From sequence record OR492646: 5,534 bases of DNA; one strand, 5' to 3'. Below, piece by piece: positions 34 through 4,510 of the stretch. Under the pieces are notes generated by a model. The model did no database searches, was not told the origin of the DNA, and saw only the letters and a list, made by a program, of their open reading frames with translations. Position numbers and translations under genes: made by a program. Origin of the DNA: Escherichia phage G4. The stretch's first letter is position 1. Each line of letters starts with the position of its first letter.

Positions 34-58
34 GCCTCCCATCAAACGGAGGCTTTTC

Positions 59-1723
59 ATGTTTAAAACTCATTCTGATTACTTCAACAAACCAAACATC
101 GACGCAATCAAACCGCTCGTCGAAACTGCTGGTATGTCTATTCTTGCTCAATCTCCGGGTCTCCGTATCTGGAAACAGTGCAATACTCGCATCAAACTAC
201 TGGAAGAAATCCTCGCCCACTACACTAACGGCATCCGCCGTGATGATAATGGTGACTTCTGGATGAATCCAAACTCTCAACTCGCAACCACTATTGCCTA
301 TCGTGCTCACCACAAAGGCCACAACCCTAAATTCAAACAATACCCAGAGTCATTTACCCTGGACGATATTATTACTGGCAAGCCAATACCTCAAACTGCC
401 CTTGGTGAATTACAACTCTCCGATGAAATCGGTGAAGATTACCGTCTCACAGTCCTCTCCATAATCGAAGAATTGCAAGAATGCTACGACGTGCTCGGAC
501 AACTTGATATTAATAACACTATAGACCACAAACCCCTCGGTAATGACCACTGGAACCTCCTCTATGAAAAACCCGTATACAAACATTGGTATCAACTCGT
601 TTCAAAACGACCCCTTAAAGATATCCGCGCCGATTACAACTATGCAAAAGCGAAGGGTATTAAAGATGAATGCTCAAAAATCTTGGAGGAGTCAACTATG
701 AAGTCTCGACGTGGCTTTACCGTTCAAAGATTAATGAATGCTATGCGTACTGCCCACACTCAGGGCTGGTATGTTGTATTCGATACTCTTACTCTAGCCG
801 ATGACCGCTTAAAGGATTTCTATGATAACCCCAATGCTCTTCGTGACTACTTCCGTGATATTGGTCGTATGGTGCTTACTGCCGAAGGTCGCTCGGTGCA
901 TGACTCATCTGCCGACTGCTATCAGTATTTTTGTGTGCCAGAGTATGGTACACAGCACGGTCGTCTACATTTCCACGCAGTGCATCTTATGCGCACACTT
1001 CCTTTGGGTTCTCTGGACCCTAACTTCGGTAAGCTGGTACGCACTAATCGGCAAATAAATAGCTTGCAAAACACGTGGCCTTATGGTTACTCTATGCCCA
1101 TCGCAGTCCGGTACTCCCAAGACGCATTCTCCCGCGCTGGCTGGCTCTGGCCTGTTGACACAAAGGGTGAACCCCTTAAAGCTACCTCGTATATGGCCGT
1201 AGGCTTCTACGTTGCTAAATACGTTAACAAAAAATCAGATATTGACATGGCCGCAAAAGGCCTAGGGAATAAACAATGGAACAATTCGCTCAAAACCAAG
1301 ATCAACTTCATACCCAAGAAAGTGTTCAGAATCCGAATGTCCCGCAATTTCGGAATGAAACTACTATCAATGGCTCACCTGTCAGCGGAAACCCTGATGG
1401 AACTAACCCAAGTGGGTTACGACGTGACCCCGTTCAACAACATCTTGAAGCAGAACGCCAAGAAAGAGCTCAAATCGAGGCTGGCAAAGAAATCTGTCGC
1501 CGACGTTTTGGAGGCGCAACCTGTGACGACCAATCTGCTAAAATTCATGCGCAATTTGACCCGAACAATCGGAGAGTCCAACCTACAGAGTTTTATCGCT
1601 TCAATGACTACGAAATTAACAAGTACGGATATTTCTGATGAAACCAAAAACTACGTTGCTGCTGAAGGAATTGCTGTTGCTAACCTACGAATTAAATCGA
1701 AGTGGACTGCTGGTGGAAAATGA
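59..1723 (+). CDS. A: Replication initiation protein A (HUH rolling-circle endonuclease), 554 aa
   Basis: The ORF track gives 32..1723. The in-frame ATG at 59 is preceded by a strong Shine-Dalgarno GGAGG (48-52) at 6-nt spacing, whereas the ATG at 32 has no RBS and overlaps the putative -10. The translation contains the HUH motif (GRLHFHAVH) and a long C-terminal region nearly identical to phiX174 A as I recall it (e.g. [43 protein letters not shown]). It stops with TGA at 1721-1723, overlapping the C start ATG (ATGA). Confidence 0.93.
500..529 (+). other. Origin of viral (+) strand rolling-circle replication; 30-nt A-protein recognition and nick site CAACTTG|ATATTAATAACACTATAGACCAC
   Basis: This is an exact match to the conserved 30-nt phiX174-type origin as I recall it, embedded in gene A (it encodes [10 protein letters not shown]). 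Protein A nicks between G506 and A507. Confidence 0.85.
698..1723 (+). CDS. A*: A* protein: in-frame internal restart within gene A (C-terminal 341 aa of A)
   Basis: The internal ATG at 698 is in the A frame and preceded by a strong SD GGAGGA (685-690) at 7-nt spacing. It begins MKSRRGF, the same position as the phiX174 A* start. Whether this phage expresses A* cannot be determined from sequence. Confidence 0.5.
1276..1638 (+). CDS. B: Internal scaffolding protein B, 120 aa, encoded in an alternate frame entirely within gene A
   Basis: The ORF track entry 1276..1638 starts with ATG. Its acidic, Q/E-rich protein ends ...[17 protein letters not shown]...[16 protein letters not shown], closely matching phiX174 B (...[10 protein letters not shown]...EFYRF...GYF) at the same length. 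Confidence 0.9.
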
Positions 1724-1975: not shown

Positions 1976-2434
1976 ATGTCTAAATCAAACGAATCTGCTG
2001 TAGCCTTTCAAACTGCTATTGCCTCTATCAAACTCATTCAAGCCTCTTCTGTTCTCGACTTGACAGAGGACGACTTTGACTTCTTAACTCGCGACCGTGT
2101 CTGGATTGCTACCGACCGCTCACGCGCTCGCCGTGCTATCGAGGCCTGCGTATATGGAACACTGGACTTTGTCGGGTATCCTCGCTTTCCTGCTCCTGTT
2201 GAGTTTATTGCTGCCGTCATTGCTTATTATGTTCATCCCGTTAACATCCAAACCGCCTGCCTCATCATGGAAGGTGCTGAGTTTACCGAAAACATCGTCA
2301 ATGGTGTTGAACGCCCAGTTAAAGCCTCTGAACTGTTCGCCTTCACTCTTCTCGTTCGCGCCGGCAACAAAGACCTTATCGGTCATGCCGAAACAAACAT
2401 CCGTGAACAATTACGTGCTCAAGGAGTTATGTAA
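1976..2434 (+). CDS. D: External scaffolding protein D, 152 aa
   Basis: ATG at 1976 with an AGGA SD about 9 nt upstream. The ORF track's upstream extension to 1925 lies inside C. From IASIKLIQAS onward the protein is nearly identical to phiX174 D (FPAPVEFIAAVIAYYVHPVNIQTACLIMEGAEFTEN...) at the same length. The TAA stop at 2432-2434 overlaps the J start (TAATG). Confidence 0.95.
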   Translation: MSKSNESAVAFQTAIASIKLIQASSVLDLTEDDFDFLTRDRVWIATDRSRARRAIEACVYGTLDFVGYPRFPAPVEFIAAVIAYYVHPVNIQTACLIMEGAEFTENIVNGVERPVKASELFAFTLLVRAGNKDLIGHAETNIREQLRAQGVM

Positions 2435-2465
2435 TGAAAAAATCAATTCGCCGCTCTGGTGGTAA
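2154..2465 (+). CDS. E: Lysis protein E (MraY inhibitor type), 103 aa, overprinted in the +1 frame of D and running into J
   Basis: ATG at 2154 with a GAGG about 10 nt upstream. The ORF track's GTG at 2097 is probably too early. The N-terminal transmembrane segment WTL...LAFLLLLSLLLPSLLIMFIP matches the conserved phiX174 E TM domain, including the Pro in LLLPSLL. The stop is TAA at 2463-2465. Confidence 0.85.
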   Translation: MEHWTLSGILAFLLLLSLLLPSLLIMFIPLTSKPPASSWKVLSLPKTSSMVLNAQLKPLNCSPSLFSFAPATKTLSVMPKQTSVNNYVLKELCNEKINSPLWW

Positions 2466-3840: not shown

Positions 3841-3849
3841 CGCAACAAA

Positions 3850-3955
3850 GGCCGCCCCTCTACTGGTCAGATACCTGCCCAATGTGGGGCGGACCGTGCC
3901 TACGGAGATACTTGAGTCTCCGATACATGGACGGCGAAAGCCGCCGTCCCTACTG
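3850..3955 (+). other. F-G intergenic structured region: candidate G4-type complementary (-) strand origin with three stem-loops and a CTG primase start site
   Basis: Seen in sequence: hairpin 3852-3858/3886-3892 (CCGCCCC/GGGGCGG); hairpin 3903-3908/3917-3922 (CGGAGA/TCTCCG, 8-nt loop); hairpin 3929-3936/3942-3949 (GGACGGCG/CGCCGTCC, 5-nt loop); then CTG at 3953-3955. The reverse complement of 3929-3954 reads AGTAGGGACGGCGGCTTTCGCCGTCC, which matches my recollection of the 5' end of the G4 primer RNA made by DnaG primase. Confidence 0.6.
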
Positions 3956-3976
3956 CAAAGCCAAAAGGACTAACAT

Positions 3977-4510
3977 ATGTTCCAGAAATTCATTTCTAAG
4001 CACAATGCTCCAATTAACTCTACTCAGCTTGCTGCCACTAAAACTCCGGCTGTCACGGCACCTGTTTTATCTGTGCCTGACTTAAGCCGCTCTACTATTA
4101 AAATCAATGCAACAACCACAGCCGTTACAACTCATTCAGGCTTGTGCCATGTTGTTCGCATTGATGAAACAAGCCCAACAAATCATCACGCTCTATCTAT
4201 TGCAGGTTCGTTATCAAACGTTCCTGCTGATATGATTGCTTTTGCCATTCGTTTTGAGGTCGCTGATGGCGTCGTTCCTACTGCCGTCCCGGCCTTATAC
4301 GACGTCTATCCAATCGAAACCTTCAATAACGGCAAAGCAATCTCATTTAAAGATGCTGTTACTATCGATTCACATCCCCGCACCGTCGGTAACGACGTTT
4401 ATGCGGGAATCATGCTCTGGTCTAACGCTTGGATCGCCTCTACTATCTCTGGCGTCCTCTCTGTTAATCAGGTAAACCGTGAAGCAACTGTTCTTCAACC
4501 TCTGAAATAA
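3977..4510 (+). CDS. G: Major spike protein G, 177 aa
   Basis: ATG at 3977 with an AAGGA SD 7 nt upstream. The translation starts [10 protein letters not shown] and ends [14 protein letters not shown], with an internal YDVYP...[26 protein letters not shown], matching phiX174 G (MFQTFISRHN...YDVYP...[26 protein letters not shown]...LQPLK). Confidence 0.95.

Follow-up and report, generated by a model that had tools for sequence, protein, structure and literature searches.

Does the in-frame ATG that lies well inside the replication gene of a G4-like microvirus, with a purine-rich motif just ahead of it, mark the start of a second protein, the A* of phiX174, or does it merely reflect the peptide encoded there? 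The stretch of DNA in which this question arises, hereafter the window, was analyzed over its whole length of 5534 nt and is, on alignment and gene layout, the complete genome of a G4-type microvirus (Microviridae, Bullavirinae, Gequatrovirus G4). A megablast search against a phage collection covered 100% of the window, its matches to ID11 and NC13 having 96.2% identity, while global alignment gave identities of 96.2% to ID11, 95.8% to WA2 and 95.3% to NC10. The gene order of the ID11/WA2/NC10-type genomes, namely A, A*, B, K, C, D, E, J, F, G and H, maps straight onto it.

Several structural features of this genome are worth recording in their own right. The stop codon of D overlaps the start codon of J in the TAATG at 2432-2436, and the window has no counterpart of the 43-nt spacer that separates D from J in G4 and ID11; as a consequence of this missing spacer gene E, for lysis (2154..2465, 103 aa), extends 31 nt into J. 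NC10 shares the spacer-less D-J layout and WA2 has a spacer of 5 nt. An 18-nt perfect palindrome in the J-F spacer, GTGGGACCGCGGTCCCAC at 2520-2537, is probably the T_J terminator. The F-G intergenic region (3841-3976), the location of the complementary-strand origin in G4, contains three perfect hairpins at 3852-3892, 3903-3922 and 3929-3949.

The frame within which the internal start has to be judged is that of gene A, the gene for the 554-aa rolling-circle replication initiator (59..1723, plus strand), which is annotated in this way in ID11, G4, WA2, NC2 and NC10. The 554-aa protein read from ATG 59 is an exact match to WMU34121.1, gpA, and the gene product hits the Pfam family PF05840 with E = 3e-60. 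The gene most likely starts at ATG 59 and not at the ATG 32 selected by the ORF-caller, ATG 59 being the start in the annotations of all the G4-species relatives examined; from this placement it follows that the internal methionine is codon 214 of A and that A* is 341 aa long. A Shine-Dalgarno (SD) motif for gene A, GGAGG, was found by pattern matching at 48-52 (plus strand), where it doubles as part of the 3' arm of a hairpin at 34-53. This hairpin (GCCTCC...GGAGGC), together with a T-run, follows a pA-like promoter at 4-33 (TTGACT, 18 nt, TAATAT), and the ORF-caller's ATG 32 sits directly 5' of the stem that begins at 34. The layout of the window at 4-61 matches the overlap of the T_H terminator with a ribosome-binding site in phiX174, as given in a recent mutagenesis preprint (bioRxiv 10.64898/2026.07.25.740675).

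The part of the gene that belongs to A but not to A* also carries the 30-nt viral-strand origin, CAACTTGATATTAATAACACTATAGACCAC, at 500..529 (plus strand), 169 nt to the 5' side of the A* start. It has exact matches in the G4 and phiX lineages, in the lineage we term talmos (ID2, FL68, MG1 and Lilledu), and in L023, a single intermediate genome from IMG/VR. Positions 1-500, which comprise the H-A intergenic region and the A-only N-terminal part, show 90-92% identity to ID11, WA2 and NC10 as against 92-100% elsewhere, and positions 501-1000 reach 99% identity to WA2; this pattern suggests either faster evolution or mosaicism of the segment 1-500.

Around the internal methionine the sequence reads atc TTG GAG GAG TCA ACT ATG AAG. 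The SD motif GGAGGAG (685..691, plus strand) falls on the codons for Leu209-Glu210-Glu211 of gene A (TTG GAG GAG), and the ATG (698..700, plus strand), coding for Met214 of protein A, is in frame with the ORF ending at 1723. A preliminary description made from the letters of the sequence had reported GGAGGA 7 nt before an in-frame ATG at 698, and a reading of the sequence and of the ORF frame agrees with it (GGAGGA at 685-690, spacer at 691-697). The same description had called the motif unusually strong for an intragenic position. This judgment is correct, for its predicted pairing with the anti-SD ranks second among the 120 plus-strand ATGs and above nine other gene starts: the duplex with the 3' tail of 16S rRNA has an energy of -9.3 kcal/mol, within 0.2 kcal/mol of the top-ranking site, gene A's own start (-9.5 kcal/mol); the starts of B, K, C, D, E, J, F, G and H all pair more weakly (-3.3 to -8.0 kcal/mol). 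The pattern GGAGG-N4-9-ATG has three matches on both strands taken together against 0.77 expected, a number reached in 9 of 200 shuffles, and its two plus-strand occurrences are the gene A start (48-61) and the A* site.

The same energies bear on the choice of the initiation codon. Gene A has 17 in-frame ATGs, and of the internal ones none but that at 698 does better than -3.5 kcal/mol. One might still consider a truncated A made from another internal methionine, at codon 226 or 229: the GenBank record of St-1 puts A* at a methionine 15 codons downstream of the homologous position, codon 229 of the window is the counterpart of that methionine, and the window does have in-frame ATGs at 734 and 743. 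Yet these two are essentially devoid of an SD (-0.9 kcal/mol), and 698 or its homologue is the start used in all annotations of the G4 and phiX clades. We accordingly regard a start at either of these codons as exceedingly improbable.

The CDS beginning at 698 (698..1723, plus strand) would specify a protein of 341 aa, with a mass of 38.8 kDa and a pI of 9.9, read in the frame of gene A and equal to the C-terminal 62% of its product; the computed mass is in line with the C-terminal fragment of about 38 kDa foreseen in the preliminary description. This product is an exact match to WMU34122.1, "gpA* [Escherichia phage G4]", whose 90% protein cluster holds solely proteins named A*. With respect to domains, residues 133-395 of A match positions 31-320 of the Pfam Phage_GPA profile (PF05840) with 204 bits, and A* matches positions 161-320 only, with 155 bits (gathering cut-off 31.4). 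A* is without the N-terminal 213 residues of A, including profile positions 31-160, and has the complete REP_ORF2-G2P core domain, which begins at residue 240 of A. A motif search on the translation located the HUH motif HFHAVH at 968..985 (plus strand; residues 304-309 of A, 91-96 of A*), and the tyrosine pair YVAKY lies at 1208..1222 (plus strand; residues 384 and 388 of A, 171 and 175 of A*). Both the HUH histidines and Y384 and Y388 are invariant in a 7-sequence alignment, and the phiX174 counterparts of the two tyrosines, Tyr343 and Tyr347, are described as catalytic in the mutagenesis preprint (bioRxiv 10.64898/2026.07.25.740675). On its translation, neither of these elements of the nuclease/ligase core, HUH motif or tyrosine pair, is lost from A*.

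The position of this start is also that of the recognized A* in related phages. An A* CDS is given at exactly 698..1723 in the GenBank records of G4, ID11, WA2, NC2, NC10, ID2 and FL68. In the protein alignment Met214 of the window falls in the same column as Met173 of the phiX174 A protein (codon nt 4497), which is the annotated A* start there; the earlier statement that the equivalent methionine starts A* in phiX174 is thereby upheld, and the phiX-like record ID1 likewise annotates A* from 4497. At the protein level A* is 97-98% identical to its counterparts in G4, ID11 and NC2, and 79% identical to that of phiX174.

Two of these comparisons deserve to be spelled out. First, the A* of G4 (CAA24012.1 / YP_009497837.1) comes from the same species-level genome and has the same coordinates, 698..1723, with an identical SD and spacer (TTG GAG GAG TCA ACT ATG); the protein is 97.4% identical, with point differences only, and belongs to the same 90% protein cluster as the A* of the window, being called A* in every source. 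The G4 genome is 43 nt longer by virtue of the D-J spacer that the window lacks, a difference unrelated to A*. Second, the A* of phiX174 (nt 4497-136) has the same length of 341 aa, the homologous methionine and a similar 13-residue peptide context. The two differ in that GGAGG precedes the ATG by 8 nt in phiX174 whereas 7 nt follow GGAGGA in the window, in the SD codons (CTG GAG GCC as opposed to TTG GAG GAG), and in the length of the A-only N-terminal part (172 aa as opposed to 213 aa). What is established about the A* protein, including its activities and the fact that it can be dispensed with, comes from phiX174. Farther afield, the A proteins of the alpha3/St-1/WA13 group (Alphatrevirus) have the same catalytic core at 46-52% identity. 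In-frame internal starts in replication genes are also known from gene X inside gene II of f1/M13 and gene 4B inside 4A of T7; these too give a C-terminal fragment that modulates replication, but the likeness is one of analogy only, the proteins and phage families being unrelated and their sequences not homologous. The A* start is a long-known feature of phiX174 and G4, already annotated for this very genome.

To see how far the start extends across the microviruses, gene A regions were gathered from GenBank phages, IMG/VR and metagenomes, yielding 114 loci, many of which are phiX174 spike-in copies; the metagenome scan in particular returned mostly such copies and added few new lineages. One of the contigs, FUFK010037421.1 (328 kb), is built of phiX174 units in tandem, placed at multiples of 5386 nt, a spacing that would fit about 60 units, and is almost certainly a sequencing spike-in or an assembly artefact. 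Among the distinct variants drawn from the G4 species, the talmos lineage, the phiX-like phages and L023, all 16 have the ATG together with at least GAGG at the same spacing. The conservation of methionine and SD asserted in the preliminary description is thus confirmed for these lineages, and the loss of ATG or SD in close relatives, which it had named as evidence against a functional start, is seen in none of them. The strength of the SD is another matter. In the G4-species, phiX-type and L023 genomes it is GGAGG(A/C), at -9.3 kcal/mol, and in the talmos-type genomes it is only GAGGA, at -6.2 kcal/mol; the A* SD is therefore not uniformly strong but weakened in the talmos lineage.

Outside these lineages the start is lost from view. 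In the alpha3-like phages the A* methionine position is taken by a glutamate (GAA); two methionines lie upstream of it, at -2 and -5 codons, and both are preceded by a weaker SD (about -6.3 kcal/mol), which for at least the one at -2 is not conserved. The records of alpha3, WA13 and NC29 carry no A* annotation. Together with the downstream placement in the St-1 record mentioned above, the A* start of the alpha3 clade (alpha3, WA13, NC29 and St-1) looks unsettled from sequence alone. Pectobacterium phage Mimer has a tyrosine (TAT) and no SD at this position; its record (ON872163.1) annotates gene A at 944-2577 as two CDSs and labels a 231-nt ORF gpA*, a label that is probably a mis-annotation or the reflection of a frameshift. 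Neither methionine nor SD is present there in Vibrio phage PG19 or in more distant contigs. The residues found at this position in the more distant A proteins include glutamate, tyrosine, alanine and arginine, and since these are tolerated, a methionine at this position is not generally required for the function of A. A start at this position appears, from these alignments, to be specific to the phiX/G4 branch.

How much weight such conservation can bear depends on the coding constraints at the site. The SD core is partly dictated by a conserved Leu-Glu-Glu/Ala peptide, and the neighboring residues are conserved too, so that conservation of the methionine within the clade is by itself weak evidence. 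This raises the alternative that the SD-like motif and the methionine are by-products of the peptide Leu-Glu-Glu-Ser-Thr-Met, with no significant initiation at 698. Two consecutive glutamates force GAG-GAx once the first of them is encoded by GAG, and the whole 17-residue peptide around the site is conserved in the clade; a low predicted accessibility of the site in the RNA and the dispensability of A* in phiX174 (PMC2935103) would also sit well with it. Synonymous codon choice can be set against this. All 10 compared genomes use GAG for Glu210, whose codon lies inside the SD, whereas the other six conserved glutamate columns are mixed for GAA and GAG. GAA is the commoner glutamate codon in 8 of these 10 genomes, accounting for about 70% in the G4-species ones; the exceptions are phiX174, which prefers GAG, and one IMG/VR genome with an even split. 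The invariant use at the SD of what is in most of these genomes the rarer codon speaks against a coding by-product, and the third base of the leucine codon, too, is kept as G in most lineages, thereby extending the SD to GGAGG. The signal is suggestive and not decisive, because 23% of the conserved degenerate codon columns are invariant regardless, a figure that counts in favor of the by-product reading. Against that alternative there is further the strength of the SD, which matches that of gene A itself and exceeds those of nine real genes, and the fact that the homologous phiX174 site is the accepted A* start, with A* having been detected apart from A by mass spectrometry in which an A-only peptide tells the two proteins of phiX174 apart (bioRxiv 10.1101/2020.06.10.143693). 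In light of this homology to an established start, the SD strength and the synonymous GAG invariance, we consider the derivation of the motif from coding constraint alone to be unlikely, and distinctly so.

A second role that could be envisaged for the motif requires initiation only in a secondary capacity: the internal SD might mainly pause ribosomes elongating along gene A, to the benefit of N-terminal folding or of A output. SD-induced pausing is a proposed phenomenon whose generality is disputed. The motif does lie near the onset of the catalytic core, the REP_ORF2-G2P domain beginning at residue 240 of A. However, a pause would not depend on an ideally spaced in-frame ATG, and here ATG and SD are conserved together; other intragenic GGAGG motifs (at about 1510, 4563, 4808 and 5340) carry no such reading, and nothing in the analysis supports a pause. 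We hold a primary role in pausing to be highly improbable. On the combined strength of its anatomy and its homology to the phiX174 site, then, the segment 685-700 is very probably the translation initiation region of gene A* in this G4-species microvirus.

It remains to consider which RNA carries this initiation region and how it would be read. In a promoter scan, whose counts were no higher than those of shuffled sequences, the interval from 59 to 698 yielded no promoter specific to A*, and the only plus-strand pA-like site was the one at 4-33. With no internal promoter-like site in this interval, A* would therefore be read from the gene A mRNA. The RNA structure predicted at the A* start is not significant (MFE -17.6 kcal/mol, z = 0.31 against shuffles). 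The site has a low predicted accessibility, with a mean unpaired probability of 0.29, and 86% of the plus-strand AUGs are more open; this low value arises because in the MFE fold GAGG of the SD (686-689) is paired with UCUC (704-707), while UCA (692-694) takes up part of the AUG. A hairpin masking the SD was considered as a conserved element and rejected, the talmos and phiX sequences disallowing the same pairing. Ribosomes translating A would melt the fold at the A* site.

The preliminary description had spoken of a restart. This term is a misnomer, as the FL68 record describes internal translation initiation in the same frame. By its sequence anatomy and by analogy to phiX174, A* is best understood as the product of internal initiation that takes place independently on the mRNA of gene A. 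In this scheme 30S subunits would bind the SD GGAGGAG (685-691) on that mRNA and initiate at AUG 698, and would do so independently of the ribosomes that began at AUG 59, as we infer from the anatomy of the site and the phiX174 homology; the product would be the C-terminal 341 aa of protein A, with the mass of 38.8 kDa given above. A more elaborate possibility is that the strength of the A* SD represents a tuned, lineage-specific control of the A*/A ratio, the SD being stronger in G4-species and phiX174-type genomes than in the talmos lineage and the start displaced or missing in the alpha3-like, Mimer and Vibrio microviruses, with the weak hairpin 686-689/704-707 coupling A* output to the translation of A. 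We consider this improbable and mention it as speculation.

As for what A* does, the preliminary description had it shut down host DNA replication and block superinfection. This is indeed the textbook attribution, and to that extent the statement stands, but its certainty does not, the literature hedging these roles with 'thought to' and 'may be' (PMC2935103). A* is counted as not essential in the same source. Newer phiX174 studies describe it as a protein that binds target sites in dsDNA and hinders the rep helicase (PMC13386984; bioRxiv 10.1101/2020.06.10.143693), and it appears to hold packaging in time with DNA synthesis, elevated A* rescuing some packaging mutants (PMC13386984). All 11 phiX174 proteins have been quantified by proteomics (PMC8125068). 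In the main text of the report on the saturation mutagenesis of phiX174, the codons of the A* SD are not listed among the detrimental synonymous sites at known regulatory elements (bioRxiv 10.64898/2026.07.25.740675), which fits a product that is dispensable in the laboratory. Our literature search found no paper showing the A* polypeptide from G4 itself. By analogy to phiX174, the A* of the present phage may be expected to bind DNA, to hinder unwinding by the rep helicase and so to act as a brake on replication; such braking would hold genome synthesis to the pace of packaging. On the same analogy the phage would be expected to form plaques under standard conditions even when A* is missing.

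Finally, with regard to its broader meaning, the A* start of this genome carries little weight as a discovery and serves rather as a positive control, in that a real internal start could be recognized from raw sequence. The comparative picture that emerges alongside, with the start seemingly confined to the phiX/G4 branch and its SD weakened in one lineage of that branch, is a modest by-product for the study of how this dispensable isoform has evolved.
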